From a virus (taxonomy: Duplodnaviria; Caudoviricetes): DNA of 64,000 nucleotides. The notes beneath the pieces were generated by a model. It saw only the letters and a program-made list of their open reading frames with translations, had not been told where the DNA came from and ran no database searches. Numbering within the stretch: position 1 is the first letter of the stretch; every line of letters begins with the position of its first letter. This document shows, piece after piece, positions 523 to 59,760 of the stretch. The translations under genes and the position numbers were made by a program. Location of the stretch: positions 93,490 through 157,489 of the IMG/VR virus record IMGVR_UViG_3300028048_000059, one strand, 5' to 3'.

Positions 523-924
523 TTACTCCTTCGGCGGCATAAAAGCTTTCAATAGTATTAAAATTTGTGTATCTTGCACCGTATCAAGCAATGCTTCTCT
601 ACGTTCTTGCGGCAGAATAGCAAGCAGCGCGCCGCTTAATCTAACCGCAGAAGCTAAGTGCATAAAGTCTTTTGTTGCATTCATTGCGGCCGCCACACGT
701 TCTTCTCCAAACCATTTTGTAAAAAGCTGCTTCGTGTGTTCTTCTCCTTCTGTAATTGTTTGCTCATATTTTTCAATATAATTATTGCTATTGGTTCCAT
801 TAATATACTTATCAAAAATATATTGAAGTAGAGCTTGACCAGAAGGTGATACGGTATACATGCCGTTTTTGATTTTTGCTTTAATCCACTGTTCTTTAAT
901 CCACTTTTTAAGTTGCGCGATCAT
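523..924 (-). CDS. Hypothetical protein
   Basis: ORF track; overlaps the adjacent upstream gene. Confidence 0.7.
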   Translation of the reverse strand: MIAQLKKWIKEQWIKAKIKNGMYTVSPSGQALLQYIFDKYINGTNSNNYIEKYEQTITEGEEHTKQLFTKWFGEERVAAAMNATKDFMHLASAVRLSGALLAILPQERREALLDTVQDTQILILLKAFMPPKE

Positions 925-1294
925 GTAGGATGCCCTCTTTCTTCATTTCTTGAATGATTTCAAAAATGGCGGCTGGCAGTAGATGAATTCGAATAATGCA
1001 ATCAAGATATTGCATGAAATACGTACGATTGCGCTTGATATCTTCAATTTCAAGACCTAAATCATCGTATGCATCAAAAGCAAGTTCAATATTAGAACAT
1101 ACATATTCTGCCGCAGTTTGTGCATCTGTATAATAATCACCACCATTACCAGTAACGCTATCTACTGCCCAAACTTCATCAAATAGAAAATCTTCTAACT
1201 CATCATAATCATCGAATTGATCTAAATCAACATCAACACTAATATAATCACGCACATCGTTTTTTAGTGCTTCTAAATAATCATATTTAATCAT
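908..1294 (-). CDS. Acidic hypothetical phage protein (DSVTGNG motif)
   Basis: ORF track; GGAGG RBS; very acidic composition. Confidence 0.7.
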   Translation of the reverse strand: MIKYDYLEALKNDVRDYISVDVDLDQFDDYDELEDFLFDEVWAVDSVTGNGGDYYTDAQTAAEYVCSNIELAFDAYDDLGLEIEDIKRNRTYFMQYLDCIIRIHLLPAAIFEIIQEMKKEGILHDRAT

Positions 1295-1571
1295 CTATGT
1301 CCTCCATTGTGGCGGAAAATCCTTTTACTGTGTAACCTGGAAAGCACCATTGAACAAATTTATTTACATCATGAACTACAATCGGTTCTTTTCCTTTACC
1401 AGAAAGTTCATCATTAAAACCATAAATTTCAATATTATCATAACCGTAAGCATGCGCTTTTACGCGAAGCGATCGTGCATCGGTTGTAAAAACAGCATAA
1501 TTATTATCAGACGCAAACTTCAATAGTTCTTTGGTCTTGCCGCTACCTCGCGGCCCAATAATTGTTTTCAT
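1287..1571 (-). CDS. Small P-loop protein (GPRGSGKT)
   Basis: Walker A motif right after MKTII; AGGAG RBS. Confidence 0.65.
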   Translation of the reverse strand: MKTIIGPRGSGKTKELLKFASDNNYAVFTTDARSLRVKAHAYGYDNIEIYGFNDELSGKGKEPIVVHDVNKFVQWCFPGYTVKGFSATMEDIDD

Positions 1572-2116
1572 TGTGTTACTCCTAATTCTTGATAGTATAC
1601 AATTAATTTCCAATTCCATGAGAGAGTTTCTTTATTAGCAATAAATTCATAAGAGGCGGCCGTACCATCGGAGACATCTTCATATCCAGCACCTTTGTCG
1701 CATTGCCATTGATAATAGACCTCACAATTTTCAAAGCCAGTGAGTACAGAAGTTAGATAAATTGTATCGCCATAGGTAACAACTGGTCCGCGAGAAGAAG
1801 AGATTGTAACGGTTTTTTCAATTGGATGCAGCGTTATAGATGGTTCTTCCACAACAGGAAACGTTAGTTCTGGTTCTGGTTCTGGCTCTTGAATTACTAC
1901 ATAATTTTCACTAAATGGCGGCGCCACTGATATCTCCGCATATGCGGAAAAAGTTGCTTCTTCAACAACGATTTCTGCTTCAATTTCAACTTCAAATTCT
2001 GTTGGTTCTTCTGTTGATTCAACTATAAAATCAATTTCATTTTCAATTAATTGTGGTTCCTCTGCCATGCTAGTGAGTGCTAACATGCAGGCAATAATGA
2101 ATGGAATTTTCTTCAT
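1568..2116 (-). CDS. Secreted acidic protein with C-terminal Ig-like strand pattern
   Basis: Signal peptide MKKIPFIIACMLALTSMA; YYQWQ...Y.F Ig-like motif; own sigma-A promoter. Confidence 0.6.
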   Translation of the reverse strand: MKKIPFIIACMLALTSMAEEPQLIENEIDFIVESTEEPTEFEVEIEAEIVVEEATFSAYAEISVAPPFSENYVVIQEPEPEPELTFPVVEEPSITLHPIEKTVTISSSRGPVVTYGDTIYLTSVLTGFENCEVYYQWQCDKGAGYEDVSDGTAASYEFIANKETLSWNWKLIVYYQELGVTQ

Positions 2117-2135
2117 AAGTCTCTCCTTTTTCTTT

Positions 2136-2164
2136 ATTATAGCATGAATTTTAGTTGCTGTCAA
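2136..2164 (-). promoter_or_regulatory. Sigma-A promoter TTGACA-17-TATAAT with extended -10
   Basis: Perfect consensus on the minus strand. Confidence 0.85.
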
Positions 2165-2193
2165 GCTCTTTTTGCGCGAAGTGGAAACTCTTA

Positions 2194-4657: not shown

Positions 4658-5923
4658 TTAGGTTGTCTTCTTATTTTTTAAGATGAGATTTAGAATGATG
4701 CCAACAATCATCGCCAGTGCCGTAGTTCCAATACTTACAACCCCAAAATTACACACAGTGCCAGAAACGCCAAGCGTTAGGATTGCCGCAATAATTGTTA
4801 CATTTTTATTGTCATTCAAATCAATATTGCTGTCCTTAATAGTGCGAATACCAGAAAGAGTGATATATCCATACAGAATCGCTGCGCACCCACCAAAAAT
4901 ACAACTGGGAATACTAACGAGGAAAGCTTGTAGCGGCCCGATAAAAGCTGCAATGCCCATAATAATTGCTGCTAATGTAATAACATATTTAGAACAAATC
5001 TTACTAAAACCAGTTGTGCCAACGCTTTCTCCATAGCTCGTATTTGGCATCGCGCCAATGAGTGCGCCAAGAGCTGTGGCGGCGCCATCGCCCATGAGAG
5101 TAAAACCAAGTCCAGGATTTTGCGTTAAATCAGTGTTAATTACTGCACTTAATGCCTTATGGTCAGATGTATGTTCGCAAATTGTTACTAATGCTAACGG
5201 GAGGAACAGTAATAGAATTTGTGGGAGCCAACTCCAATTCCACTGATTAAAATGAGTGAAGGCAAAATCTGGCATTTGAAATAGATGCACATTGTTAAAT
5301 GCGCTAAAATCAATAATCTTAACTCCACAAACAGTTAATACAGCCGCGAAAGCATAAACAATTAAAATCGAAATTAAAAATGGTAAGTTTTTAATAAATC
5401 CCTTTCCATACTGTGAGATAAGAGCAGTGATGAGCAGCGTCAGAATACCTAAACCGAAACCAATTAAACTATATTGACCATTGATCTGAAAATATGTAGG
5501 GATAAAAGTGGCAAGATTCAGACCAATTACGGCTACAATTGGACCAATTACGACAGGTGGAAGCAACTTATTAATCCACGCTGTTCCAAAGTGATTGATG
5601 GCGGCGCCAACTGCAAAATATACAATGCATACAATAATACCACCAATAAATACTGCAAAATAATTTGGGACTGCGCCTAATGCTAGTGCGCCAGTAACTG
5701 CCGCGACAAATGCGCCAGATGAAGAAATAAACATTGGGCTTTGGCCGCGGGTAATCAGTTGATATAATAGTGTACCAAGCGCTGCGCCAAGCATGGCAGG
5801 CGCAATTGGCACGCCGCAAATAGTAGGAATTAGAATCGTGGCAACAAAGCAAGCAACTACTTGTTGTAGCGCTGCGACGACGAGCCGTCGCATGGGTAGT
5901 TTATCATTAATATTATATAACAT
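4658..5923 (-). CDS. uraA: NCS2-family uracil/xanthine permease (UraA/PyrP-like)
   Basis: Many TM segments; SSSGAF, LLPPVV.GP...IG and P.TSYGE..G (NAT signature) motifs; start MLYNIND with AAGGAG RBS. Confidence 0.85.
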   Translation of the reverse strand: MLYNINDKLPMRRLVVAALQQVVACFVATILIPTICGVPIAPAMLGAALGTLLYQLITRGQSPMFISSSGAFVAAVTGALALGAVPNYFAVFIGGIIVCIVYFAVGAAINHFGTAWINKLLPPVVIGPIVAVIGLNLATFIPTYFQINGQYSLIGFGLGILTLLITALISQYGKGFIKNLPFLISILIVYAFAAVLTVCGVKIIDFSAFNNVHLFQMPDFAFTHFNQWNWSWLPQILLLFLPLALVTICEHTSDHKALSAVINTDLTQNPGLGFTLMGDGAATALGALIGAMPNTSYGESVGTTGFSKICSKYVITLAAIIMGIAAFIGPLQAFLVSIPSCIFGGCAAILYGYITLSGIRTIKDSNIDLNDNKNVTIIAAILTLGVSGTVCNFGVVSIGTTALAMIVGIILNLILKNKKTT

Positions 5924-5924
5924 A

Positions 5925-6101
5925 TTATTCTCCTTCAATAAATTTCTTAATATATTCAATAAACTCTTGATCTTCCATATAAAAACAATCTCGTGTTCTA
6001 AAAACATTCGACATAAGTTGAGCAAGACGCCAGTCTGGCACTTTATGCCAAATTTCTCCGAGCTGTTGACAAATATTTTCAATACGATTTGGGTTTCTCA
6101 T
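5925..6101 (-). CDS. Small phage protein (MRNPNRI...W...PDWRL.QL), not in ORF track
   Basis: Hand translation, 58 aa; GAGG RBS. Confidence 0.6.
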   Translation of the reverse strand: MRNPNRIENICQQLGEIWHKVPDWRLAQLMSNVFRTRDCFYMEDQEFIEYIKKFIEGE

Positions 6102-6457
6102 ACCTTATTCCTCTTATTCCAAGCAGTAATTGTTGCGTAATAAGGAAGTTGATCATAATGAACACAAAACGCATCCGTATCATCATTAGTAATAGGTAGC
6201 TCTTGTTCAAGTGGCTTATTTGGGTCGCAAGTTATCGTACAGTAATCGCGCCACCATTCTTTTGTTGGAGCCGTATCAATAGTTGGCGGCATAACATTAT
6301 TATTACCACAATATAGGCATGTTGGAGTTAAAGGAGAATAAACTTTTCCGCATTTTGGGCATATCCATCCATACTCTCGTGATACAGGAAAGTTATACTC
6401 ACTACTATTAGTAGCTGTAACAGGTGGACCATCAACTGGGATATGATTAAAATTCAT
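6098..6457 (-). CDS. Zinc-ribbon protein (GWICPKCGKVYSP...C..C)
   Basis: Paired CxxC motifs. Confidence 0.65.
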   Translation of the reverse strand: MNFNHIPVDGPPVTATNSSEYNFPVSREYGWICPKCGKVYSPLTPTCLYCGNNNVMPPTIDTAPTKEWWRDYCTITCDPNKPLEQELPITNDDTDAFCVHYDQLPYYATITAWNKRNKV

Positions 6458-6959
6458 TTTCTTTCTCCTTTATAAATGCTATTGCATCTTCAATATTGCT
6501 AACAAGAATGCCGCCTTGTTTGATTAGTCCAGTAACATAAAGATTCTGATAACTATATTGTTGTTCACCAAGTGCCGTGGCGCCGCCTTTGTCCTTGGCT
6601 TCACTATGCGTTAGATACATCTGTCGATTATCTGTGCAAATACCGACAATATATTTATGGTCACCGCGCTCGATTTTTTCGTGGAATTTCCCGATTTCTG
6701 CGCAACTTCCTGCTGGTAAAATGTCTCCATCTATACATGCAACAAGAATATCTGTATTATTCAATCGAATGTTATCACCGTTGGCGATTTCTTGTGAACC
6801 TGCAAATTTCTTTTTCCCTTCTGCGCCATTAATATCGCTGTTTTCAATTGGGCTGTACAAGTCTGCATTAGGTATTGCCGCTCTAATTTTTTGTGCCCAT
6901 TCTGTATTCCTTAGTACATCACCATAATAAAAAATTGAACCTGCAAGATAAATTTTCAT
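6447..6959 (-). CDS. Nucleoside 2-deoxyribosyltransferase-like protein
   Basis: MKIYLAG start; YSP, D..RL...D, G...EIG and NLYV.GLI motifs. Confidence 0.85.
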   Translation of the reverse strand: MKIYLAGSIFYYGDVLRNTEWAQKIRAAIPNADLYSPIENSDINGAEGKKKFAGSQEIANGDNIRLNNTDILVACIDGDILPAGSCAEIGKFHEKIERGDHKYIVGICTDNRQMYLTHSEAKDKGGATALGEQQYSYQNLYVTGLIKQGGILVSNIEDAIAFIKEKENEF

Positions 6960-6960
6960 A

Positions 6961-7146
6961 TTATTCCTCCATTTTATCAGTAGCCTTATAATTATGAATA
7001 AAGGCGTTAATTTCTTTATAACATTCGGGGCAGATGTCATACCACTCGTCTTTATCATCTTGCATCATAAGTCGTACATATAACCATCTTAAAGATTTTC
7101 TTGCTTTTATTTGTTTATGACAACGATCACAATATTGTTTTGTCAT
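6961..7146 (-). CDS. Small Zn-binding hypothetical protein (CDRC...CPEC)
   Basis: ORF track. Confidence 0.6.
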   Translation of the reverse strand: MTKQYCDRCHKQIKARKSLRWLYVRLMMQDDKDEWYDICPECYKEINAFIHNYKATDKMEE

Positions 7147-7184: not shown

Positions 7185-8072
7185 TTATATTTCATAATTT
7201 GTTACCACGATTTCTCTTGTCTTGTTGCCGCCATCATTTACTGTATGTGTACAATGAGAATATGCAGGATTGTTGATGTCATGCACAAATAGATTGCCTT
7301 CATAACCATCTATCCATTGCTCTAAAATAGTATTGGTTTTGCCATGATGTTCAATAACATTCGATAATGCCCATTTAAACCCGAGGCTATGCGCATTATC
7401 TAAATAATTTAGAAGTTCTTTCTCATCATACTCATCCCATTTCTGCCATACTTCTAGCAATCCATTATTATATACTTGATTAGTAATAAGATATGGCGGG
7501 TCGAAATACAATAGCGTATTTTTTGGGTTGAATTTTATTAAATCAATTTGTGAAAAACTTGCATTATGTAATTCAACACCTTGAATCAGATTGTAAAATT
7601 TTTCAATGCTGTTGCGCTGTCTTGCAGAAAAATTAGAGTAACCGCGGCCAAATCCTGCATTAAATTGTAGGTTTTTGTTAAAACGCATTGTAAAATGGAA
7701 GCTAAATCTAGTTAAAGTATATAAATCCAATGGTGTATGATATTCAGAAATGTTATTATATGCATCACGATACGCTAAGAACCCTTCTTCATTTTCTTTG
7801 GATAATTCAAATTCATCGATACGTTTTTCAATAAAATTTAGAATTTCTGAAAATGAATATTGTTGAAAGGCTTGCATGATTTCAATTAAAAAACTATTGG
7901 CATCAACTGCAATTTTTTTATTTGCTGTCGCATTAATAGATACATCGCATCCACCACAAAAGAAATCAATTAATGTATCAATTTTTTGTGGAAATAGCGG
8001 CATTAATTGTTTCATAATTTGATATTTATTACCAACCCAATTAAATGGAGATTTTACATAAATCGCACTCAT
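7185..8072 (-). CDS. dam: DNA adenine methyltransferase (Dam/D12 class)
   Basis: SPFNWVGNK, D.FCGG and DPPY motifs. Confidence 0.9.
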   Translation of the reverse strand: MSAIYVKSPFNWVGNKYQIMKQLMPLFPQKIDTLIDFFCGGCDVSINATANKKIAVDANSFLIEIMQAFQQYSFSEILNFIEKRIDEFELSKENEEGFLAYRDAYNNISEYHTPLDLYTLTRFSFHFTMRFNKNLQFNAGFGRGYSNFSARQRNSIEKFYNLIQGVELHNASFSQIDLIKFNPKNTLLYFDPPYLITNQVYNNGLLEVWQKWDEYDEKELLNYLDNAHSLGFKWALSNVIEHHGKTNTILEQWIDGYEGNLFVHDINNPAYSHCTHTVNDGGNKTREIVVTNYEI

Positions 8073-8157: not shown

Positions 8158-9396
8158 TCATTTAGGTGGAATCATTTTGTCGCACAGTTGTGGAATACGG
8201 CCTCTTTCTGATTTAATCAATTTAACTGTGCCAAAGAGTGGGTCGCCGCTTAAATGATCTAACATAGATTTTATACCATTATTTTTTTCAAATTTCTTAT
8301 TATCAATTTGAGCTACATCGCCGCAGAAGATAATTTCACTATTATCCTCCATACGACTTAATAATAAGGTAACTAATTTATCATTTAAATTTTCACATTC
8401 ATCGCAAAGCAATATAGAATTTTTAATACTGCGGCCGCGAATGTGAGAGATTGGATAAATTTCAATTATTCCATCTTCTATCATTTGCTCTAATACGTCT
8501 GTGCCGCCAAGATGATCAGCGATGGGGCCGCCCCAAATTGACATTTTTTCTGTCATAGTTCCGGGGAGAAAACCAATATCATTTGTATCTGCAACAATAA
8601 TATTATTGCGAACAAACACCAATTTTTTATATACGCCACGATAGATTTGTTCAAGCGCATAATTTAACGCAATCATTGTCTTGCCGCTGCCCCATGCAGA
8701 AGTTAATAATTTCACCTTAATTGAATCATTTTGTAAGAGATCAAAAGCCATTTTTTGCTCTAAGTTACGTGGTTTAATTGTCTCATTTAAAAAATGATTC
8801 TTGATTTCTTTATATTTTAATGGCCTATAACGTTCGCCAGTCCAAAATAATATATCTTTTAAATCATCGCCTTCGTAAATTTTTGCAAATTCATTAGTAA
8901 TACAATGCAAAACATTGGCTGTTGGGTCAGAATACAATGAAGCCAATTGCGCGTTAGAAGGTGTATAATTTTTCCATCCTTGGTTTTCTTCATATTCCAT
9001 CAGGGCGTTGTCTTTCCATAAACGCCAACCAAGCTGTGGAAAGCAAGAATGGAGCAAATATAGAGCATAATCACTTGTAACAAATGTGACAGATTCATGC
9101 ATTTCTTCTTGCAGAAGACATGCGGCCGCCACTAATTTGTGATCTGCTATATCTGATAGATATTTATTTTTCTTTATAATTTTATTTATTTTCTTTGTTT
9201 CAGGAATATAATATTTATAATTCGATGATGTAATCATATCACGAGTTAATTTTCTTGCACGATATTTTACTTCATCATTTTTTTGTGAATTTTTGATATT
9301 TTCTAACTCTGAAACAATTAAAGGAGTAATCCATATATTTGGATAGTGTTCTGTGCATCCATTTAGAAGCGCAGACGTATCACAAAAATATATCAT
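8158..9396 (-). CDS. phoH: PIN-domain PhoH-family protein
   Basis: N-terminal PIN (DTS..L, VTSD); GSGKT, IGFLPG, HIRGRS, DE.EN, GD..QID and RG motifs. Confidence 0.9.
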   Translation of the reverse strand: MIYFCDTSALLNGCTEHYPNIWITPLIVSELENIKNSQKNDEVKYRARKLTRDMITSSNYKYYIPETKKINKIIKKNKYLSDIADHKLVAAACLLQEEMHESVTFVTSDYALYLLHSCFPQLGWRLWKDNALMEYEENQGWKNYTPSNAQLASLYSDPTANVLHCITNEFAKIYEGDDLKDILFWTGERYRPLKYKEIKNHFLNETIKPRNLEQKMAFDLLQNDSIKVKLLTSAWGSGKTMIALNYALEQIYRGVYKKLVFVRNNIIVADTNDIGFLPGTMTEKMSIWGGPIADHLGGTDVLEQMIEDGIIEIYPISHIRGRSIKNSILLCDECENLNDKLVTLLLSRMEDNSEIIFCGDVAQIDNKKFEKNNGIKSMLDHLSGDPLFGTVKLIKSERGRIPQLCDKMIPPK

Positions 9397-9409
9397 ACAA
9401 TCACTTCCG

Positions 9410-10009
9410 TTATTCAAGTATTTGATCAACTATACCAAGTTCAAGCATATCCTTTGCAGTAAGGAACCATTGTTTACGCGCCTTGCTGTCATATAATTCT
9501 GGTGTGATTTTTGTATTATCTAGAATAAATTGACGAATATCTTGATCTACTTGATCATTAAAAGCCATAATATCAGCAGCAGTTTTTGATTCTGATGGCG
9601 CAATGGTAATATATCCATCATGTAGTAGTGCATATGAGCTAGGATAGCACATACGTGTTACGTTCGGATTTTTGCCTGCACCGGCAAGAATAACTGCGGC
9701 CATACTAGCGGCATAACCGGTAACAATAATTTTTAGAGGCTTCTTGTATTGTTGCAGATAGTGCGCAAGGAAGAAACCGTCAGAAACACTACCGCCAGGC
9801 GAGTTGAGAATTAATGTAACAGGAGTATTAATGTCATCATTCTCAAAGTCGCGTAAAGGCAGATACACACATTCTACCAATGATTCTTCAACCTCTTGAT
9901 TAAAAATAACTGTACGGTTATGGAATAGTTGATGAAAATATTGATAATCAACAGCGTCAAGTGCTGAAAACTTTTCAACTACTCCTAGAAAATCGATATC
10001 TGTATTCAT
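9410..10009 (-). CDS. clpP: ClpP-like serine protease
   Basis: NSPGGSV, G.AASMA, LLH and G.VD motifs. Confidence 0.85.
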   Translation of the reverse strand: MNTDIDFLGVVEKFSALDAVDYQYFHQLFHNRTVIFNQEVEESLVECVYLPLRDFENDDINTPVTLILNSPGGSVSDGFFLAHYLQQYKKPLKIIVTGYAASMAAVILAGAGKNPNVTRMCYPSSYALLHDGYITIAPSESKTAADIMAFNDQVDQDIRQFILDNTKITPELYDSKARKQWFLTAKDMLELGIVDQILE

Positions 10010-11175: not shown

Positions 11176-11204
11176 ATTATACCACAATTTTACTTAGATG
11201 TCAA
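11176..11204 (-). promoter_or_regulatory. Sigma-A promoter TTGACA-17-TATAAT
   Basis: Perfect consensus; upstream of the ligase. Confidence 0.85.
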
Positions 11205-11741
11205 TTGTGTGATAAATTTATTTACTTTTTCTTCCAATTGATTTATATCGCCATCATTAATGATGCAATAATCAAAAAAGGCGTTATCAAGCTCTGTTTC
11301 ACTTATGTGTGTAAGTTGAGTATAAGTCATTAATGGATTTTCATATATACTACCATCTGGATTAAGGCGAGTGATGCGCACAGTAGTTACGTCATCGTTG
11401 TAACGCTCGATTGCGGTTTTCTCGCTAAAAAAACGCCAGTCTGGAATAAGCGTATATGTGAAATCATTACTTGCGGCCGCCACAAACTCGCCAATAATGC
11501 GGCCCCAATAGAATTGATCGTATGTGCGCATCATGGTTGTCCCAATATATTGCAGAAGAGCGCGCCCATCTTTGTCTTTCTTTCCATCCCAATTATAAAA
11601 ATCACGTGCAAACCATTTAACTGGATCTGCAAAATGAATTGTTAAAACTTTTTCGCCGCGTTCTTCTAGTTGATTTTTCATTAGTGCGGCCGCGGCATCC
11701 TTTCCATGCTGGCTTTTTGCAGAAATTAAAATAGTTTTCAT
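11190..11741 (-). CDS. Deoxynucleoside monophosphate kinase
   Basis: GKD, FAD..K, R..LQ..GT, D.RF..E and H.SE motifs. Confidence 0.85.
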   Translation of the reverse strand: MKTILISAKSQHGKDAAAALMKNQLEERGEKVLTIHFADPVKWFARDFYNWDGKKDKDGRALLQYIGTTMMRTYDQFYWGRIIGEFVAAASNDFTYTLIPDWRFFSEKTAIERYNDDVTTVRITRLNPDGSIYENPLMTYTQLTHISETELDNAFFDYCIINDGDINQLEEKVNKFITQLTSK

Positions 11742-12797: not shown

Positions 12798-12998
12798 TTA
12801 CTTATCTTCCAACTCGGGTAGACCAGCCACACTTGTTAATAGACTAAGAATGCCAGCTAGGATGGACGCAGATGCAACCATTACCCAATTTACTTCGGAA
12901 ATTACTGCGCTTGTGCCAATTGTGGCTACGGCAGTTTGTGCTACGGTTTTAATGGCGCGAACACCTGCGGCCGCTAACCAACGTTTAAAATCGGTCAT
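12798..12998 (-). CDS. Holin (r1t-like)
   Basis: W..AAG.RAIKT.AQT...SLLTS.AGLPE pattern. Confidence 0.85.
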   Translation of the reverse strand: MTDFKRWLAAAGVRAIKTVAQTAVATIGTSAVISEVNWVMVASASILAGILSLLTSVAGLPELEDK

Positions 12999-16508: not shown

Positions 16509-17657
16509 TCAAATCTCCGTAATACCATCAATAATTAGAGCAAAACTGGGTGCAGATTGTAGTTCAGACTCATGGAAATAGCCATCATAAACATATGGAG
16601 CATATTCCTCGTCCTCTGCAATAATTTCTTCCATTGTCTTACCGCCAACAGTAAATGTGGAAGTATCAAATACATGTAGCGAGCCATCCATAATTGCTCC
16701 TTCTACTTCTGCAACCTTTTCAGCAGTACCTTCTGCAATAACATTCTCATTTAGCTCAGTAATATGTACCGCGCCATCAATATAGCCTTGGCACCAATCG
16801 GTAGCAATGGGCTCACCTTCGATTACGCACTGAACCGCATAGGTATAATATGGCGCCCAATCAATGGCGGCCGAAGTAAGTGAGGTGGTTGGCGCGACAG
16901 AATTCATCGACACATTATAACCTACACATGGTACACCTGCGGCCTCACATGCAGTTGGCGCGCCGGTAGTATCGGCATGCTGGCTAATAAGTACGCATCC
17001 TTGCGCAATAAGAGCCTCGGCGGCTTCCTTTTCAAGATCAAATGATGCCCAACTACCAGTATACTTAACAATCATAGTTGCGCAAGGGCACTGCGAACGC
17101 ACGCCAAGGAAAAATGCAGTAAAGCCGCTAATAACTTCTGCATATGGATGCGCCCCAACATAACCAATAAGGCAATTATCTTCTGTTACCTTACCGTCAG
17201 CAATCATTTCAGCAAGTTTCATACCTGCTACTACACCAGACACATAACGAGACTCGTGTACAGAGGTAAAATAATTATGGAAATTTGGGATATTAGCTAG
17301 CGCCGCATTAAATCCAGTAGCATGACAAAATTCAACGTCTGGATATTCATATGCCGCATTCAGTAGGTAGCTTTCGTGGCCAAATGAATTAGCAAATACA
17401 ATATCACATCCACCATCTACTAGGTCAATTGCAGCATCATAACATGCTTCTGTTTCTGGAACTAGCCACTTTGTAACAAGTTGGTCGTCAGTTAGTCCTA
17501 GGGCCTCTTGCATTTCTAGCGCGCCATTATAGTGCGCGGCGGTATATCCTTCATTTTCGTCTCCGACAAAAATAAAACCTACACGCACATTGGGAGCAGC
17601 GAAAGCAACATTAAAAGTTAGTAGAGAAATGAGAAATAGTACGACAATCTTCTTCAT
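16509..17657 (-). CDS. BMP/PnrA-family ABC substrate-binding protein (purine/nucleoside-binding type)
   Basis: Signal peptide; VGFIFVG, FANSFGH, RY.SGVVAG and ISQHAD motifs. Confidence 0.9.
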   Translation of the reverse strand: MKKIVVLFLISLLTFNVAFAAPNVRVGFIFVGDENEGYTAAHYNGALEMQEALGLTDDQLVTKWLVPETEACYDAAIDLVDGGCDIVFANSFGHESYLLNAAYEYPDVEFCHATGFNAALANIPNFHNYFTSVHESRYVSGVVAGMKLAEMIADGKVTEDNCLIGYVGAHPYAEVISGFTAFFLGVRSQCPCATMIVKYTGSWASFDLEKEAAEALIAQGCVLISQHADTTGAPTACEAAGVPCVGYNVSMNSVAPTTSLTSAAIDWAPYYTYAVQCVIEGEPIATDWCQGYIDGAVHITELNENVIAEGTAEKVAEVEGAIMDGSLHVFDTSTFTVGGKTMEEIIAEDEEYAPYVYDGYFHESELQSAPSFALIIDGITEI

Positions 17658-17826: not shown

Positions 17827-17830
17827 TTGT

Positions 17831-17901: not shown

Positions 17902-17904
17902 ATA

Positions 17905-18215: not shown

Positions 18216-18220
18216 GGGCA

Positions 18221-18295: not shown

Positions 18296-18315
18296 ATAGA
18301 AAATAATAACTTATT

Positions 18316-19046: not shown

Positions 19047-19050
19047 AATC

Positions 19051-43550: not shown

Positions 43551-45608
43551 TTACATAATAATTTTTACTGGCTTTGAATAATATGTGTTGCTATTGCTAT
43601 CTGACAGTTTGCATCTCCATAAGCATGCACCATTGATATTTGTGGCAGAAGATTTTACTGTGCATGTATTTGTAGTCGCGCCAGTGCCAGAAGAATTAAC
43701 CCATATAGTTCCATTTGTTAAACTATATTGCCACTGATATGTGACGCTATCCCCGTTGGCAACTAATGAAAATTGTGTAGACTGATTAAGTGCCGTTACA
43801 GTAGCATCTTGTGGTTGCGCCAATATCATTATGCCAGTATGTTTTGTGTAGTATATTGTCATAACTGCTAATCCTGTCTCAGATGCGGCACAAGCAACCG
43901 TATTCGGAGACGTATATATACAAGCAGAATACAAATTTGGATTTGTACCATAAACCCAGTTCATCGGGCGAGTAAAACCGTTAGAAGCATATAATATACC
44001 AGTTAAATTTACAAAACGCACTGCACCGGTTGGATATGGGAGATCATAGAATGAGTTTGCAGAAGAAATCTGTTGATAGATTGTCTTTTTATATATATAA
44101 TTACCATCAAGCCATGTTTCCCCTGTGCATTGTTCGTCTGCGCTATATGTGTCTTGTCCCGCAACATCTTCTGGCGCAGGTGTCCAATCGGTTGGATGCG
44201 TACCAAATTCGATTTTTACTTGCTTTATATTCGCTGTGCAAGTAGTATTTGTATTATTTAAAAAAACTTGTAGGCCGTATTTAGCAGGTGTTTCACTTGA
44301 TGTATCAGTATATTGATTTACATTAGTCGTAAACCAAACACGTACCCATTCATTGTCTTGTGGCGCGCTGAGCATATTTAACATATTTAATGTATTTCCA
44401 TCAAAATAATGCATCCTATACGATAATCTTGTATTGTCTGCTTTGAAACTAGCAAAATTTACAACAATTTTCTGCCCCACGGTTGTCAATTCGTCTGCCT
44501 TTAAATAAAATGAACAACAAATATCGTTACCTTGTATTGCGGTTACTGGAATATCTGGCAAATAAAAACTTGCACTAAGCCAATGCTGGCCGTCTGGCAC
44601 AATTGTTACTACATCAAAGCCATCTTCATCTTGTGAGATTGTACCTGTTGTAGAACTATAATATATATCATCCGCCTTAATTCTCTTAGAGTAGCGATAT
44701 AAGTTGCGGCCGCTGCCATAGCCTTCTGCCGCAATTTGTGAGAGTGTCTTGAATGAGCCGCCATGAAAGCGGAACATTGGATGTTCTGGCGGTAACACCA
44801 TATTGGTTGTTGTACTCATAAAACCAAGTAATAAATAAGTATAACCATCTGGCGCCGTTGGGATAGTTGTTGTAACTACGCCTGCGACAGGATCAAGCAT
44901 TGTCCCCGCCAGATTACCTTTTATAAAAACTGGTTCGCCCGCCGTACCAGAGAATCCACTTATGGTATTAGCTAATGAAAATGTGCTGCCCCAAGCGATA
45001 TAGTTATTTGTTTGAGTACCGCCTGATGTGTAAGCAGTGCCGACATATAGAATTGGTTTAGAAACGTCGAATGCTGTCGTTGATAATAATATTAATTTAC
45101 CGTCTGCATTAAAAACGCCAATTCTGCCAGCAGAGATAGCCATAGCAGACTGCACAGATGCCTTATAGTTAACACGATCATAATAGTTTGTTGTGGTATC
45201 TTGGCCACGCTGAATCCACCAGCCAGTATAACTACCACTACCATTAATCGCAGCGCCAACTCGATACGTAAGTACCATTATGTTACCTGCCGCGACCTGC
45301 GTACCTGCGCGTGTCGTGCCATTGATATAAACATTCTTTGCTCCGGTAAGTGTGCCATCGCTTAATGTAAGATTTAATGTTGCACTGGCAGCAGAGGTAT
45401 ATGGTAGCCAATATACAATGGTCGTGCCATCTTCAATAGAAGAGAGCGATGTTACGCCTGTCCAAGAGGCGGTCGTCGCGGTTTGTGTGCCAAGCACCAC
45501 ATCTATACCTGCGGCCGCCTCCATGTTCGAAATACCGCGTTCAATGCGGTTGAGATTTGCGGTGTCAATAATGTCACCGTGCTTCCAGATTTTTCTTTGA
45601 AAAGACAT
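43551..45608 (-). CDS. Tail fibre/receptor-binding protein (carbohydrate-binding-like and Ig-like domains)
   Basis: GRNL...K.E.G..PTDWTPAPED, YS.DE..TG..W.DG and QPQD...YQWQ motifs. Confidence 0.75.
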   Translation of the reverse strand: MSFQRKIWKHGDIIDTANLNRIERGISNMEAAAGIDVVLGTQTATTASWTGVTSLSSIEDGTTIVYWLPYTSAASATLNLTLSDGTLTGAKNVYINGTTRAGTQVAAGNIMVLTYRVGAAINGSGSYTGWWIQRGQDTTTNYYDRVNYKASVQSAMAISAGRIGVFNADGKLILLSTTAFDVSKPILYVGTAYTSGGTQTNNYIAWGSTFSLANTISGFSGTAGEPVFIKGNLAGTMLDPVAGVVTTTIPTAPDGYTYLLLGFMSTTTNMVLPPEHPMFRFHGGSFKTLSQIAAEGYGSGRNLYRYSKRIKADDIYYSSTTGTISQDEDGFDVVTIVPDGQHWLSASFYLPDIPVTAIQGNDICCSFYLKADELTTVGQKIVVNFASFKADNTRLSYRMHYFDGNTLNMLNMLSAPQDNEWVRVWFTTNVNQYTDTSSETPAKYGLQVFLNNTNTTCTANIKQVKIEFGTHPTDWTPAPEDVAGQDTYSADEQCTGETWLDGNYIYKKTIYQQISSANSFYDLPYPTGAVRFVNLTGILYASNGFTRPMNWVYGTNPNLYSACIYTSPNTVACAASETGLAVMTIYYTKHTGIMILAQPQDATVTALNQSTQFSLVANGDSVTYQWQYSLTNGTIWVNSSGTGATTNTCTVKSSATNINGACLWRCKLSDSNSNTYYSKPVKIIM

Positions 45609-51031: not shown

Positions 51032-51449
51032 TTAGAAGCTCCTCAATCTTCTTGTCACGACGCTCTTTGTTGCTGCTCCACCTATCACCAATAATATTAA
51101 TCACTTCTACAATATGATCGAGTTTTTGATCTAGATCATAGAAGAACCTTGTTGCCGCCTTAAAGAAAGACTTACATAGCTTATCCTTCATGCGGCTATA
51201 CGCAATTAGCTTTCCAATCTGTGGATCAAACTTATCGGTGGGCGCGCACTTAGCAATACCAACAAAACGATGGTTCATGAATGGTGGATTTTTAAAATAA
51301 CTCATCGAGATAACTGCATCGTTATCCTTTTGTAGACTATTAAAGAAAGCAATAAAAAGATCATTTGGTTCATCATAATAGCAACGCACTTCGCGCTTCT
51401 CTTCATTTACAACATATTTACAATCTTGCGGTTTAATATTAATCCTCAT
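51012..51449 (-). CDS. Hypothetical phage protein (G.AKC.P.D.FD...G..IA..R)
   Basis: Recurrent phage motif. Confidence 0.65.
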   Translation of the reverse strand: MRINIKPQDCKYVVNEEKREVRCYYDEPNDLFIAFFNSLQKDNDAVISMSYFKNPPFMNHRFVGIAKCAPTDKFDPQIGKLIAYSRMKDKLCKSFFKAATRFFYDLDQKLDHIVEVINIIGDRWSSNKERRDKKIEELLNGNQTD

Positions 51450-51858
51450 AATTCCTCCTGACCCAAAGAATTACATTGTTAGGTTGAAAATGTATCTTTG
51501 CTGCCTGTAATGTTTCATAATTGTATAAAAAATTAATTGGGTAGTCATTATTTTGAAAAGATGTGACATAATCTTTAATTCTAGTATTACATTCATTTAA
51601 TCCAAAAAAATCACCATAATAATTATGTGCAAAATAAAGGCATGTAATACCAGTATCTTCTTTGGTTAAGAAAATTTTTCCTAGGAGTTCTTCTTCCCTT
51701 TTGTATTGCGGAGTTAGTTTTAAAATTTCTTTAAAATATCTATAAGCGAAAGGAAAAGTGTGCTGAAAAACCTTACTAATATGCGGCCGCTGGCAACACA
51801 CAGGATAACAAATAAGACCGGGTGCGGCAAAATAATCCCCTTGCGCAATCTTATACAT
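51439..51858 (-). CDS. Degenerate macrodomain-like protein
   Basis: M..I.QGD.F, I..PV.C, FP.AY, LLG and YG spacing of macrodomains; Gly-rich loops missing. Confidence 0.4.
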   Translation of the reverse strand: MYKIAQGDYFAAPGLICYPVCCQRPHISKVFQHTFPFAYRYFKEILKLTPQYKREEELLGKIFLTKEDTGITCLYFAHNYYGDFFGLNECNTRIKDYVTSFQNNDYPINFLYNYETLQAAKIHFQPNNVILWVRRNYED

Positions 51859-51859
51859 A

Positions 51860-52669
51860 TTAAAACCTCTTGATAATTTCAATTTTAGGGTGATCGCCAT
51901 TGAAAATACTATTGGTTGTATACACTTTTGTAATAAGATTCGGGATATCAAGTAATGAGACGCCCTTAATATGCGGCCCGAGCACTGTTTTTTCGCAATG
52001 CGAAACCCATACATAGAGATTGTTGGCGCCGCGTTCTTTTAGTTCTCTTGCGGCCTCATATAGGGTAGAGCCGCGTGAAAGAATATCATCACACATAATA
52101 ATGTCATGGCCCGCAATCATATGACGTTCGCCCGCCACACGTAGAGATTCAATTTTTTGACTCTCCCAATCACGCACCTTTACGCCAAAAGCATAGGGTA
52201 CAGTGAAAAGAGAATGGAGCCGCTTCATTGATCCTTCATCGGGGAAGAAAAGTAGCGCATTTGGATATTGCTGAATCAGTTGCTGAATTTCATATTGCGG
52301 CGATTCAACTACAACTCTATCGAGTAGCGCAGGAGTTACAGAGGAATGAGGGTCATAAATTTTCACACGCTTAAAATTCATTTGATTAATAAGTTCACAT
52401 GAATATTTAAGGGTAAAAATTTCTTCCTTCTTTTTTGTGCGGTCTTGCCTACCATTGAATACATATGGCATATTCAGTGCAAGATCATAGTAAAAATTTG
52501 TATGTAGATGATTCACAACATATAGCAGATAAAGAAGTTCGCAATCATTTTCATATAACCAAGTAATTTCTACTTCTCCGCAACCGTATGACGGCAAAGA
52601 AAGTTTTGCACGGCAAGACCCATCATTATAGTGGTCAAATGTCACTGGCTCTTCATTGATTTTAATCAT
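51860..52669 (-). CDS. prs: Ribose-phosphate pyrophosphokinase-like protein (Prs/Adps-like)
   Basis: MPY....RQDR, DPHS, FPDEG, K.RD, DDI.S.G.T and SH.E motifs. Confidence 0.88.
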   Translation of the reverse strand: MIKINEEPVTFDHYNDGSCRAKLSLPSYGCGEVEITWLYENDCELLYLLYVVNHLHTNFYYDLALNMPYVFNGRQDRTKKKEEIFTLKYSCELINQMNFKRVKIYDPHSSVTPALLDRVVVESPQYEIQQLIQQYPNALLFFPDEGSMKRLHSLFTVPYAFGVKVRDWESQKIESLRVAGERHMIAGHDIIMCDDILSRGSTLYEAARELKERGANNLYVWVSHCEKTVLGPHIKGVSLLDIPNLITKVYTTNSIFNGDHPKIEIIKRF

Positions 52670-53262: not shown

Positions 53263-53396
53263 AAATCCTCCATTATGAGTAGCTAAATTGTTTGCCGCAT
53301 TTTAGGCAAACACAAACATTTGTAATAGTGTGCGGCCGCTCTGCAAAACAAATTTTATATTTAATTGAATAATGAGAGGCGCCGCAAAAAGGACAC

Positions 53397-54034: not shown

Positions 54035-54262
54035 TTAATCTACTGTATAACCCCAAAATTTATAAACAACAATATTGTCAGTGATATGATCTGCAAGATA
54101 CAGAACGCCGCAACTCTCGGTCCACATTTTCATATCTTCAACTTCACTACCATAGATAGGGCAATAGAAAATGCGCTCACCATTTGCTTGTGCGGCCGCC
54201 ATCTTTTCATTCAACTTAGCCCAAATTTTTGGCTCCCGCTTCTTCTTCTTTTTAAAGAACAT
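54035..54262 (-). CDS. Hypothetical protein
   Basis: AAGGAG RBS. Confidence 0.6.
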   Translation of the reverse strand: MFFKKKKKREPKIWAKLNEKMAAAQANGERIFYCPIYGSEVEDMKMWTESCGVLYLADHITDNIVVYKFWGYTVD

Positions 54263-56547: not shown

Positions 56548-56952
56548 TCAATCCCACAACATAAAAAAATGCTTTCCAACATCCGTCAGAACTTCTTCTG
56601 CAAGCTGTTCTCGCCGTTCTCGTTCCTTCATTCCAAACCTATTTACCCAATTCTCTTCCTGCAAAAATTCCAACTTAAACGCCGTATCATTAAGCCACTT
56701 ATGCCACGATTCCAAAGTAGGAAACTCATCATTGCCTGGGTATCCTATACCATATTTAGCAATATGTCGTAGCATCTTTGGTAAAATGAACAGCATCCAA
56801 GTATCCATATTCCAAATATCGGTATAGCAAAAACCATATCGTGCCCTATAAATCATGTTTTTGATGCCACGAAAAACATCTGCAACCCATACCCATGGGT
56901 GCCAAAAATAATAACGAGGAGTATATGAAAAAATAAAACAATTCATAATCAT
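56548..56952 (-). CDS. Hypothetical phage protein
   Basis: D.WN.D...GYP...LWD motif. Confidence 0.65.
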   Translation of the reverse strand: MIMNCFIFSYTPRYYFWHPWVWVADVFRGIKNMIYRARYGFCYTDIWNMDTWMLFILPKMLRHIAKYGIGYPGNDEFPTLESWHKWLNDTAFKLEFLQEENWVNRFGMKERERREQLAEEVLTDVGKHFFMLWD

Positions 56953-57407
56953 GTCTCCTTGATTATATTAATTTTATCCCATCCTTCGAACCACGCAGGA
57001 TAGGTCATTTGTTTCTTCATTCTGTGCATAGCTTCTTGCGGCACAACCCTATCACGCATTCCATTGCGGCGACAGCATTCATCATAGGGAGTAGCAAACA
57101 TTAGGGCGCACAGATAAACACCGGGGGTAGCATTGCGAAAGAACTTGACTAGCCGCAGGCGGTCCTTGCGCTTAACATTCGTTGCGCAAATAATAACCGA
57201 GTGGCCGCCATTGATTGCGCTCACTGCTCGCTCGTATAGCACGTCAAAAATAGCTTTGGGATTGCACTGTGTGGCCGCATCGCCGCATAGTTCTTCTCTA
57301 ATGTCATCGCTATCTAAAACAACATAATTCGTCTGCTGGCGGGCCCACGTTGTTTTTCCGCTACCCGGCAGGCCAACAGTAACAATAATTTCTTGTTCTT
57401 TCTTCAT
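56949..57407 (-). CDS. Polynucleotide-kinase-like P-loop protein (AAA_33)
   Basis: GLPGSGKTT, SD.IR, ATN....R, RN..RDR.VP and EGWD motifs. Confidence 0.85.
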   Translation of the reverse strand: MKKEQEIIVTVGLPGSGKTTWARQQTNYVVLDSDDIREELCGDAATQCNPKAIFDVLYERAVSAINGGHSVIICATNVKRKDRLRLVKFFRNATPGVYLCALMFATPYDECCRRNGMRDRVVPQEAMHRMKKQMTYPAWFEGWDKINIIKET

Positions 57408-58159
57408 GTTAAAAACCCCGCATAATCTGTAATACAAAGCGCCCCATCAATGCGGCCGCAGTTGGCAAAATGGATGTCGTTAATTCCATTTTCATTTAAG
57501 AAATTGCTAAAATCATAATATTCTTCTACCCCATATTCTTCAATGAATGATATGGCAATATCGATATTATTGTCTGCGAGTGGAGATGACGAAGCAAAAG
57601 CAATTTCCCTAATCTCCTCGCTTGATTGTGTGCTAGTATAACATTGCGCAAATGGATACGCATAGAGAGGAATTTGAATGATAATGTTTGTGTTATGTTC
57701 AAACAAAACCTCATCGTTTGCCATGAATTTTGCTTCGAAATCTCTTCGCGTAAACCACTCAGGAATAAACTCGTCACATACAATGTGCGGGCACCCTACA
57801 ATTTCTTTTCTATATGTACCAATATATGTTGGTTGAGCAAAAAAATGTTCATAATGTTCCGCACACGCCATCTTATAAATTTCAATTTCTTTTTGGCATG
57901 CACTAATACCGCGGATTGTATCTACAAGATCAAATTTTACTACATAGTCATAATTAAAATCAACGATACAACCGCGTTCAGAACCAAAATAAATATTAAT
58001 ATAATCTGCCATGCACCCATCATTGCTACCGAAAATATCGTCGGTACTTTGGGGATACTGGAAGTAATAGGGAAAGAAGACCGAGTTCTCAATCATTCTA
58101 TCCAAAATATGTGAATAATGCTCAAAAATTTCATTCTTTTTCATCAATTCTACCATCAT
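57404..58159 (-). CDS. Protein-kinase-like-fold protein
   Basis: G..R......YVVK, C..E..IY and NDIH..N.G....DYAG motifs. Confidence 0.6.
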   Translation of the reverse strand: MMVELMKKNEIFEHYSHILDRMIENSVFFPYYFQYPQSTDDIFGSNDGCMADYINIYFGSERGCIVDFNYDYVVKFDLVDTIRGISACQKEIEIYKMACAEHYEHFFAQPTYIGTYRKEIVGCPHIVCDEFIPEWFTRRDFEAKFMANDEVLFEHNTNIIIQIPLYAYPFAQCYTSTQSSEEIREIAFASSSPLADNNIDIAISFIEEYGVEEYYDFSNFLNENGINDIHFANCGRIDGALCITDYAGFLT

Positions 58160-58310
58160 AATTTTTATCGATTAGTACCTGATTGGCGTTCTTGCATATC
58201 GGACAATATACTAAATCGCCATAAACATCACTAAGTTCATAAGCGAGCAAGGCGCCGCAACGTTCACACACACAAGTAAGACCGGGGTAGTTTTTAGAAA
58301 GCACTGTCAT
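58131..58310 (-). CDS. Small zinc-ribbon protein (CERCGA...YCPICK), not in ORF track
   Basis: Hand translation, 59 aa. Confidence 0.55.
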   Translation of the reverse strand: MTVLSKNYPGLTCVCERCGALLAYELSDVYGDLVYCPICKNANQVLIDKNYDGRIDEKE

Positions 58311-58447
58311 TAGGTGTTGCCGCCATTGTTCATGAAATTGTTATACCAAACCATAAAAATTACAATAAGAATTGCACCAAGAACAGACCACATATTACTT
58401 GTCCTCCTCTTTTTCTACTACTATTATAGCAGAATTTCAGTTAGAAG

Positions 58448-58636
58448 TCAAAGAAAATCCATGAAGTAATCTGGTTCTAGCCCAAGTTCGCAAGCAAGAA
58501 GATCCTCAATATATTCATAATTTTCGCCGCGATCAAGTGCTTCATAAATCATTTCCTTCACTTCATAAAAGCGCTGCTCGGCCTCAAACTCAGAAAGATT
58601 ATCTCTCTTCATAATCACACGGATTGTTTCGTTCAT
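58448..58636 (-). CDS. Small acidic phage protein (GLEPDY motif)
   Basis: ORF track; AGGAG RBS. Confidence 0.7.
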   Translation of the reverse strand: MNETIRVIMKRDNLSEFEAEQRFYEVKEMIYEALDRGENYEYIEDLLACELGLEPDYFMDFL

Positions 58637-58650
58637 ACCAATTCTCCTTA

Positions 58651-59760
58651 TTACATATTCTTAATTAGGGTGCGGGGTTCCATTCCTACCAAATAATCAT
58701 GTGCATTATCGCATTTATTATCTAACCGATTGAAAAGGAAATTACGTACAAGACCAGGGTACTGCAATGCTAGTGCCGCAAATTGCTTTCTATCGTTACC
58801 GAACGGCTGCACAAGTTGCCAAGCATCTTTCATTGCTTGCTCTTGCTCATGTAGCCACGAGACAATGGCGGCCACCCTATCGTTGAATTGCGGGAAAGAC
58901 CCAACAAAATCGTCTAAGGTGTTGTTTTGCCACATCTCCACAATGCTAGCATCGGTAATTACACCATTATTGAGGGTGTGGTGAAGCCGCAAATACTCGT
59001 CTCCCTTGACTTTAATTCGCAGAAAGCTCCCATCATACATAGTGTTGGCCCGCACTACAAATCCTTCATGGTTGCGGTCCAAGGTATGTGAGGCCTCAAT
59101 ACAATCGTCTAGTGAATTGAAATGATAGGTGCGTGGCACAAAGTTCTGGAAGGTTTCAGGAATTGTAGCGCTTTCTTCCATCGTTACCATGTTGCGGCAA
59201 CCCAAAAACCAAACTCTATTCTCCTGATACTGCACAACGATCGTATTGTAGGACGGTGCCACTAGTTCAAAATAGTAGCAATATTCTTTATTCAAATGCT
59301 GCATCCATCCATTTCCAAATTGCGCATTGGCAATTGTCATAAACAAATTACCAAAATTCACACCCCGGGCTGTGGCGCCCGTAGTTGCGAACGCATCGAT
59401 ACAATTGTTAGTGGAAACATGCCATCTATCATGCCACCATACCTTTATTAGTGAGCCATCGATTTTTTCCAACACATCAACGCCATCGTTCCAATGAATG
59501 AGGGGGGTAGCCGCATACGATTCGCCCCAATTGTGGAACTTGTCGAGTGCTCGCGCCACACATTTCCAAATTCCATCTTCATAGGTGAAAATGCTTCCTC
59601 TCGCTTCCTTTACCTCATCCAAATTGAAATCCGATTCGTACTGGTTGTAACGCAGTAGCCAGTAGTTGCTATCTTGCGTTGCAGAAATACAATAAGGTGC
59701 GGCCGCAAGTAGTTGCTGCCAATCGTTAGGGTGGTCATTCAGGAACTTTATTAACTTCAT
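58651..59760 (-). CDS. T4 Rnl1-type RNA ligase
   Basis: E.RG, KF.N, EKIDGS, FEL, EGFVV and K.K..EY motifs. Confidence 0.9.
   Translation of the reverse strand: MKLIKFLNDHPNDWQQLLAAAPYCISATQDSNYWLLRYNQYESDFNLDEVKEARGSIFTYEDGIWKCVARALDKFHNWGESYAATPLIHWNDGVDVLEKIDGSLIKVWWHDRWHVSTNNCIDAFATTGATARGVNFGNLFMTIANAQFGNGWMQHLNKEYCYYFELVAPSYNTIVVQYQENRVWFLGCRNMVTMEESATIPETFQNFVPRTYHFNSLDDCIEASHTLDRNHEGFVVRANTMYDGSFLRIKVKGDEYLRLHHTLNNGVITDASIVEMWQNNTLDDFVGSFPQFNDRVAAIVSWLHEQEQAMKDAWQLVQPFGNDRKQFAALALQYPGLVRNFLFNRLDNKCDNAHDYLVGMEPRTLIKNM

Follow-up and report, generated by a model that had tools for sequence, protein, structure and literature searches.

The stretch of phage DNA described here covers bases 93,490-157,489 of the 157,489-bp IMG/VR record IMGVR_UViG_3300028048_000059 (G000; linear, 37.9% GC and estimated to be 91% complete). 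This stretch of 64,000 nt is the window, and window positions count from its first letter. Related viral records, some of which are fragments, carry the labels G001-G023. The window contains 19 exact copies of a GC-only 8-bp palindrome, GCGGCCGC. A first-pass annotation of the sequence had claimed at least 18 copies; all 18 of its positions are correct, and the copy at 33191 was overlooked. The sites are listed below with the open reading frames (ORFs) in which they lie, the residues they encode and, for some, the state in relatives.

686-693: Ala-Ala-Ala, in a minus-strand ORF (523-924)
8431-8438: Arg-Gly-Arg, in a PhoH-like gene (8158-9429, minus strand); also present in G001
9122-9129: Ala-Ala-Ala, in the same PhoH-like gene (8158-9429, minus strand); Ser-Glu-Ala in G001
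11473-11480: Ala-Ala-Ala, in a deoxynucleoside monophosphate (dNMP) kinase gene (11190-11741, minus strand)
11686-11693: Ala-Ala-Ala, in the same dNMP kinase gene (11190-11741, minus strand); Val-Ala-Asn or Phe-Ser-Asn in relatives
12967-12974: Ala-Ala-Ala, in a small minus-strand ORF; Lys-Ala-Ala in relatives
19521-19528: probably non-coding; the sole covering ORF (77 aa) is doubtful
19883-19890: Ala-Ala-Ala, in a minus-strand ORF of 76 aa
29063-29070: Leu-Arg-Pro, in the endolysin gene (27642-29309, minus strand)
33191-33198: Ser-Gly-Arg, in an ORF of 767 aa (31889-34192, minus strand); the site missing from the first-pass annotation
42936-42943: Cys-Gly-Arg, in a small minus-strand ORF; also present in G001
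44706-44713: Ser-Gly-Arg, in a tail/adsorption-like gene (43551-45608, minus strand)
45511-45518: Ala-Ala-Ala, in the same tail/adsorption-like gene (43551-45608, minus strand)
51783-51790: Gln-Arg-Pro, provided that the ORF at 51439-52014 (minus strand) is real
53332-53339: probably non-coding
54192-54199: Ala-Ala-Ala, in a minus-strand ORF of 76 aa
55635-55642: Ala-Ala-Ala, in a minus-strand ORF of 60 aa
57452-57459: Cys-Gly-Arg, in an ORF at 57404-58159 (minus strand); Val-Gly-Trp or Val-Gly-Leu in relatives
59699-59706: Ala-Ala-Ala, in an RNA ligase gene (58651-59760, minus strand)

The genome encodes a replication set comprising a split DnaE-type polymerase, RecJ, a primase, a Sak4-type ATPase, a RuvC-like resolvase, GyrA and GyrB. 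The primase gene occupies 77,323-78,474 of G000 and has genes for proteins of 372 and 193 aa as neighbours. Also encoded are DNA and RNA ligases, the dNMP kinase, an anaerobic ribonucleotide reductase, many homing endonucleases and five tRNAs. The endolysin is a GH25 enzyme with peptidoglycan-binding and SH3 domains, a domain make-up that indicates a Gram-positive host.

The octamer is present in strong excess. The 19 copies in the window compare with an average of 0.47 over 100 dinucleotide-preserving shuffles, none of which exceeded 2. The whole of G000 holds 38 copies (about 1 per 4 kb), for which Markov models of orders 0, 1, 2 and 3 predict 0.26, 0.91, 1.87 and 7.5, respectively. GCGGCCGC has the highest z-score among all 8-mers of the genome, with an excess over chance of about 20-150x, and its single-mismatch neighbours reach at most 14 copies each. 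Within ORFs (for counts of this word, those of at least 80 aa) there are 27 copies, versus 2.5 +/- 1.5 when synonymous codons are shuffled within genes and 1.4 +/- 1.1 when codon order is shuffled. The strong enrichment proposed in the first-pass annotation thus survives Markov (orders 0-3), dinucleotide, synonymous-codon and codon-order nulls, including the codon- and dinucleotide-preserving shuffles under which that annotation had expected a spurious excess to vanish. HIP-type words are expected to be spaced quasi-periodically. As a measure of evenness only, the gaps between sites in G000 have a coefficient of variation of 0.76 (P=0.05) and do not exceed 9.7 kb (P=0.006); values for four other genomes were non-significant.

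Phages usually deplete palindromes, as had been pointed out from the sequence, and the same genome does show restriction-site avoidance. CTGCAG, CTCGAG, GTCGAC, GTGCAC and CTATAG have zero copies in G000, and CTTAAG, AGGCCT, AGTACT, GAGCTC, GGTACC and ACGCGT occur at 0.04-0.11 of expectation (GATC at 0.55). Such avoidance of many 6-bp palindromes is what exposure to type II restriction usually leaves behind. For GC-only palindromes that contain CpG the sign is opposite, with enrichment of 5-145x. Because purging of short palindromes is expected in phages, an enrichment of two orders of magnitude for a rare-cutter palindrome suggests that some sequence-specific process is at work on phage DNA.

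The sites occupy every reading frame. By our crude gene calls, 21 sites in G000 are read as GCG-GCC-GCN (Ala-Ala-Ala), 8 as xGC-GGC-CGC and 5 as CGG-CCG, and 4-5 are non-coding. Ala-Ala-Ala tripeptides are written as GCGGCCGC in 16 of 39 cases, versus 1.5 expected from codon usage. The word occurs on both strands, and 11 of the 38 sites fall outside ORFs of at least 80 aa, that is, in 18% of the genome. No common sequence was found in the flanks of the sites, and thus they do not belong to a mobile element. The immediately adjacent bases are biased: in five genomes the base at -1 is almost never A (T is preferred) and the base at +1 is rarely T (A is preferred), and in G007 the full 10-mer TGCGGCCGCA is found at 7 of 18 GCGGCCGC sites. 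We conclude with confidence that the process acts on DNA and not on protein; the frame counts and shuffles confirm the earlier argument against a protein-level cause, which had been made from sites in all three frames and in non-coding DNA.

GCGGCCGC is the tip of a nested family of words (GCSGC, GCGGCC, TGCGGCC and, in places, TGCGGCCGCA). This placement within a group-wide family is new relative to the first-pass annotation. The pentamer GCSGC reaches 3.6-9x its dinucleotide expectation in nearly every member of the phage group, octamer-free members included, while on the same measure its single-mismatch neighbours lie at about 1.0x and GCWGC is not enriched. The pentamer is enriched in all three frames relative to synonymous shuffles. 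GC-only 8-mers of all kinds are 5-8x over-represented in the enriched genomes (8x as a class), where the lengths of GC runs show a bump at exactly 8. Codon phase was rejected as the cause of this bump, which is seen in runs starting at codon positions 2 and 3 and not at position 1. In G000 the two 6-mer halves of GCGGCCGC are strongly enriched on their own, and each outward extension from GGCC is strongly non-random. The flanks of GGCC are tightly coupled in G007 (odds ratio 19.6) and G008 (odds ratio 6.7), and in these lineages the palindrome is a discrete unit. In octamer-free relatives, different words that share the GCGG core are hyper-abundant (TGCGGCA/TTGCSGCAA, TGCGGGA and GGCGGTT): TGCGGCA occurs 130 times in G010 (15 expected), TGCGGGA 72 times in G018 (6 expected) and GGCGGTT 45 times in G023 (4.6 expected).

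Megablast against GenBank phages found nothing, and a 793-aa protein used as the first query for relatives gave no match. A portal-like protein retrieved 156 related viral contigs. In a quick, unfinished version of the portal tree, one of the deep branches is the G000 clade and the other contains G007 and G008 as sister groups; one large sub-clade lacks the excess of GC-only 8-mers. GCGGCCGC is present in 18 copies in G007 (89-kb record) and 19 in G008 (134 kb); these two phages carry the additional direct-repeat forms GCGGCGGC and GCCGCCGC. G001 (179 kb), with a portal protein about 71% identical to that of G000, has 13 copies of GCGGCCGC alongside 35 of GCCGCGGC and 16 of CGCGCGCG, and G002 (167 kb) has 14 of GCGGCCGC and 13 of CGCGCGCG. 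About twenty other records, mostly of 65-150 kb, have 0-2 copies of GCGGCCGC each. The choice of word is visible in alanine runs: Ala-Ala-Ala is written as GCCGCGGC in 13 of 43 cases in G001 and never in G007 or G008, where GCGGCCGC is used in 10 of 49 and 12 of 62 cases, respectively. A mosaic origin of the two words of G001 was rejected, as both are distributed along the whole genome. It is firmly established that the favoured palindrome is lineage-specific and differs between sister phages.

A second class of GC-only palindrome also switches among relatives. The early regions of these genomes contain GTTAA...TTAAC dyads (0.6-17.2 kb in G000, 42.6-55.1 kb in G001, and 62.4-63.4 kb of the window), whose cores are GGCCGGCC in G000 and G005 and CGCCGGCG in G001, G003 and G006. 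The first-pass annotation had suggested that the GGCCGGCC cores of the dyads at 62-64 kb may be related to GCGGCCGC; they instead form a separate class, clustered in the early region.

Few sites are old. Of 21 G000 sites that could be mapped on G001, 4 are shared (0.84 expected), and on G002 the figure is 1 of 21 (1.07 expected). Residues opposite Ala-Ala-Ala sites of G000 in relatives include Glu-Asn-Trp, Asp-Gly-Ala and Ser-Glu-Ala, and Cys-Gly-Arg lies opposite Val-Gly-Trp. Many sites stand opposite different amino acids, and sites have therefore arisen even where the protein had to change. The origin of the sites is thus point substitution, often with an altered residue. With 88-98% nucleotide identity to one another, G001, G003, G004 and G006 make up a species complex in which GCGGCCGC was retained in 4/4, 5/5 and 2/3 comparisons; relative to G005 (75% identity), 3 of 4 sites are kept against a background of 0.15. 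Several of the differences at sites are single substitutions amid identical flanks.

The species complex made it possible to count gains and losses among 809 polarised substitutions and to set them against a null in which both the type of each substitution and its class (synonymous, non-synonymous or non-coding) were matched. Gains of GCSGC were 4.2x the null (p=4e-4), with 3.4x for CGCGG, 6.2x for CGCGC, 3.8x for GGCCG and 2.6x for any GC-only 5-mer (p=3e-9); control words were gained at 1.0-1.1x. Losses of the words were 0.4-0.9x the null. The gains were mostly transitions into the word. Taken alone, GCSGC is compatible with selection with a scaled coefficient near 2. A word-writing process that is gain-biased, phage-specific and builds words on GCSGC is firmly demonstrated.

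We searched the genomes for enzymes that could be responsible. Neither the C5 nor the N4/N6 methylase family (PF00145 and PF01555) was found in G000 (91% complete) or in the complete relatives, and all of these genomes also lack Vsr (PF03852), HhH-GPD (PF00730) and UDG (PF03167) genes. Base modification by the phage was rejected, given that no thymidylate-synthase/dCMP-hydroxymethylase or TGT/DpdA family is encoded in G000 or the complete relatives. The only methylase in G000 is a Dam-like enzyme of the D12 adenine type (window 7185-8072); it too was rejected as the cause, having an adenine target and being absent from G001 and G008, which are complete and enriched. The methylation-driven process that the first-pass annotation had considered thus finds no enzyme in these phages. 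A homologue of the Dam-like gene in G002 (81690-82424) has four in-frame TAG codons, which could reflect a pseudogene, an intron effect or TAG recoding. When gene presence and absence was compared with enrichment across nine whole genomes, only a nucleobase permease and three small proteins, encoded by window ORFs 20070-20606, 41859-42287 and 56548-56952, co-occurred with it. The search for the C5 methyltransferase or co-occurring DNA-binding protein that had been envisaged yielded neither a cytosine methylase nor a plausible reader.

Other features of the genome are recorded here as observations in their own right. GyrA, with a C-terminal beta-propeller, and GyrB (genome positions 85,018-87,396 and 91,218-92,693) are both kept in 9 of 9 whole relatives, and three GCGGCCGC sites lie inside the GyrA gene. 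Genes for nucleotide salvage are found on the minus strand at window positions 4658-6082, 6447-7058, 11190-11741 and 16509-17657, with products identified as a xanthine/uracil-family nucleobase permease, a nucleoside 2-deoxyribosyltransferase, the dNMP kinase and a PnrA/Bmp-like nucleoside-binding lipoprotein. A membrane permease is unusual for a phage. The five tRNA genes (Gln-TTG, Lys-TTT, Thr-TGT, Ile-TAT and Leu-CAA) are on the minus strand at 17753-23359. An AAA_33 kinase-like protein is encoded near the T4-type RNA ligase (56949-59760), and the two are possibly a tRNA-repair pair.

A lead to the host comes from permease-bearing phage fragments binned in two Clostridia metagenome-assembled genomes (MAGs). 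These MAGs contain 5 and 0 copies of GCGGCCGC, and 201 genomes of the candidate host order contain 0-7 each. In a 193-kb sample of a GC-matched MAG, GCGGC occurs at 1.3x, GCGGCC at 0.63x and TGCGG at 1.15x expectation, and TGCGGCC occurs 4 times versus 14.6 expected (0.27x). A host-wide word was rejected, there being no excess of GCGGCCGC in the candidate MAG sample or the 201 genomes; equal enrichment in the host, which the first-pass annotation had named as fatal to its own proposal, is not seen in them. If the host call is right, the lack of enrichment there removes an explanation by a host methylase. In crude ORFs of the sampled Clostridia MAG (G031), AGCGG has a sense-strand bias of 2:1 (132:67). 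AGCGG is the Chi word of Bacillus subtilis.

Our tentative preference, to which we give somewhat less than an even chance, is for an explanation in two layers, a sequence-specific phage factor plus a general bias towards GC clusters, with GCGGCCGC a phage-intrinsic iterated word that is HIP1-like in form. Recurrent A/T-to-G/C point substitutions write GC-only words into an AT-rich genome, in every frame and in spacers. The factor would be phage-encoded, probably a protein of the replication and repair set that has two-fold symmetry and binds or processes DNA, and it may either favour word-bearing alleles (the word serving to recognise 'self', under selection or drive) or correct mismatches towards the word. 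The superimposed bias, by growing GC clusters in general, would inflate word counts, and cytosine methylation by the phage would play no part. The case for a reader of the word draws on how sharply the words are specified, on the coupled flanks and symmetric 10-bp form seen in G007 and G008, on the few old sites that are conserved, on how evenly G000 is covered and on the contrast with the candidate host. It is conceivable, though on balance unlikely, that these phages mark their own DNA with GC-only palindromes nearly absent from the host, and that the words are read by a phage protein with two-fold symmetry, which might, for instance, steer replication priming, protection or packaging to phage DNA and whose specificity has switched between sister phages sharing a habitat (GCGGCCGC versus GCCGCGGC). 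If so, each lineage would have a private 'self' word in mixed infections.

Several points weigh against the two-layer explanation. In G000 the GC flanks of GGCC are almost independent (38 copies of GCGGCCGC seen versus 32 predicted, odds ratio 1.46, p=0.16), and the half-words of GCCGCGGC in G001 are likewise near-independent. Thus, it is not clear that selection in G000 acts on the palindrome itself, which is carried along there by the half-word excess. Retention of GCCGCGGC in the G001 complex was 7/13, 6/13 and 5/8, with 8-mer backgrounds of 0.645, 0.519 and 0.482. GC-only 5-mers, gained at 2.6x and lost at 0.9x, do not fit symmetric selection and indicate a bias of mutation or repair. Substitutions were polarised by parsimony from BLAST alignments in which some of the records are incomplete; the G001 complex was used because no close relative of G000 was available. 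ORFs were called as greedy longest ORFs with introns ignored, and gene calls are correspondingly crude. The permease and the three small co-occurring proteins gave no family, PHROG or Atlas lead pointing to a reader. Both permease-matching MAG contigs are themselves phage fragments, so that the link to the host comes from binning only.

Near-neutral losses, conservation of the G001 word at background, independent half-words and the general growth of GC clusters favour instead a pure by-product of mutation or repair, which we judge possible but rather unlikely as the full account. The replication and repair machinery (DnaE-type polymerase, separate exonuclease, RecJ, Sak4 and resolvase) would have an A/T-to-G/C bias beside GC clusters, islands would grow, and the commonest words would reflect the pentamer bias of each lineage. 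Gains of any GC-only 5-mer or 6-mer at 2.3-2.6x the null with losses at 0.8-0.9x, and the 8x excess of GC-only 8-mers taken together, are in line with such a process. So are palindrome counts roughly predicted by half-words in G000 and G001, word turnover at the background rate in G001 and the greater density of sites outside long ORFs. Pentamer frequencies with the GCGGCCGC sites masked predict 15 of the 38 copies in G000. The same process does not readily explain why GCSGC stands at 3.6x while its neighbours are near 1 and GCWGC is unenriched, why the palindrome is a discrete unit of 8-10 bp in G007 and G008, why some GCGGCCGC sites are retained well above background, or why GC runs have a bump at exactly 8 independently of codon phase. 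In addition, no known enzyme with such a bias is encoded.

A process linked to host methylation, in the sense proposed for HIP (Elhai 2015), is quite improbable. A host cytosine methylase would recognise the word or its core, and very-short-patch-type or methyl-directed repair would turn near-sites into sites during phage replication. The form resembles HIP1 and its alternate palindromes (PMC4390886), GCSGC, like CCWGG, is a 5-bp core whose centre is degenerate, most gains are transitions that create the word, and rapid word switching in sister phages would fit host methylases that vary between strains. Nonetheless, the host chromosome should be marked too, and the candidate MAG and 201 genomes of its order are unenriched. 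The T-for-C neighbours of GCSGC that deamination would produce are not depleted in G000 (GTGGC at 1.29 and GCGAC at 1.15 of dinucleotide expectation), the phage has no cytosine methylase, Vsr, HhH-GPD or UDG gene, and its genome otherwise looks like unmodified DNA that avoids restriction sites.

Accumulation of host Chi-like sites is very improbable. By this account, words with a GCGG core would be gathered, as Chi is in P1, to tame the host AddAB nuclease, with the palindrome serving both directions. All relatives enrich GCGG-core words, TGCGG is the top pentamer in G010, G018, G020 and G023, and words show a moderate absolute strand bias regardless of gene orientation (37:12 in G020 and 47:25 in G018). 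Phage P1 has 50 Chi sites over both strands (preprint 10.1101/2021.07.08.451572). The candidate host, however, is not enriched in TGCGG, GCGGC or TGCGGCC, and its skewed word is AGCGG. The half-words show no switch of polarity along genomes with terminal repeats and fixed ends, both strands being used, and words lie no closer than random positions to identity jumps or ends of alignment blocks, our proxy for recombination at mosaic boundaries. The phages encode their own Sak4/RecJ recombination set, and Chi should not differ between phages with portal proteins about 70% identical.

An artefact, whether of protein, codons or technique (alanine-rich motifs, codon-pair bias, NotI linkers or assembly), is scarcely credible: 21 of the 34 coding sites are indeed Ala-Ala-Ala, but the excess persists under synonymous and codon-order shuffles, sites lie in every frame, on both strands and in spacers, orthologous sites are common to independent assemblies, and no flank sequence is shared.

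Whatever their origin, such words would bias k-mer-based host prediction and binning of these phages.

Known systems invite comparison. Very-short-patch repair by Dcm and Vsr produces an excess of CCWGG in E. coli. Our words resemble this case in an over-represented 5-bp symmetric core with a degenerate centre and in gain-biased transitions. They differ in that the phages are without Vsr, a C5 methylase or a mismatch glycosylase, in the undepleted T-for-C neighbours, and in an effect that is much larger and reaches 8-10 bp.

The Chi sequences of Firmicutes include AGCGG and GAAGCGG, and our words share their GCGG core. As in P1, a short GC-rich word is dense on both strands. The top word is palindromic here, however, with no polarity to genome ends and no tie to recombination boundaries; the candidate host shows no enrichment of the words, and close sister phages differ in the word they use. 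Another kind of phage word, the nick-associated motif of T5, tf and similar phages, is marked by single-strand interruptions of virion DNA at the motif.

The nearest likeness is to cyanobacterial HIP1 (GCGATCGC) and its alternate palindromes, GC-rich octamers whose function is unresolved (Elhai 2015, PMC4390886; Xu, Lawrence and Durand 2018, PMC5861425). Full-text literature searches turned up no report of HIP-like words in phages. In both cases a GC-rich 8-bp palindrome is over-represented tens to hundreds-fold in every frame and in intergenic DNA, is made by point substitution, and may be replaced by an alternate palindrome in related genomes (here GCCGCGGC and CGCGCGCG in G001, and CGCGCGCG in G002). 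The HIP1 analogy drawn in the first-pass annotation therefore stands as to form (an octamer palindrome, its origin by substitution and an alternate palindrome), and its link to methylation is unsupported. A HIP-type octamer is expected to be over-represented 15-300x. A genome that carries such a palindrome should also encode a methyltransferase specific for it or for its inner core (Elhai 2015, PMC4390886), and no cognate methylase is encoded in the phage. Individual HIP1 sites are kept in relatives more often than background predicts (Xu et al. 2018, PMC5861425), whereas most phage sites are not positionally conserved; the phage comparisons are mixed, with GCGGCCGC well kept inside the G001 complex and GCCGCGGC at background there. 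HIP1 belongs to cellular genomes, at about 1 per kb, and GCGGCCGC, at about 1 per 4 kb, to a phage of a Gram-positive gut anaerobe, in which half-words and GCSGC are independently enriched and whose candidate host is without the word. This phage group has advantages that are missing from the cyanobacterial HIP1 problem, namely small genomes, sister lineages that differ in their words, and a 90-95% identical species complex that allows gains and losses to be counted.

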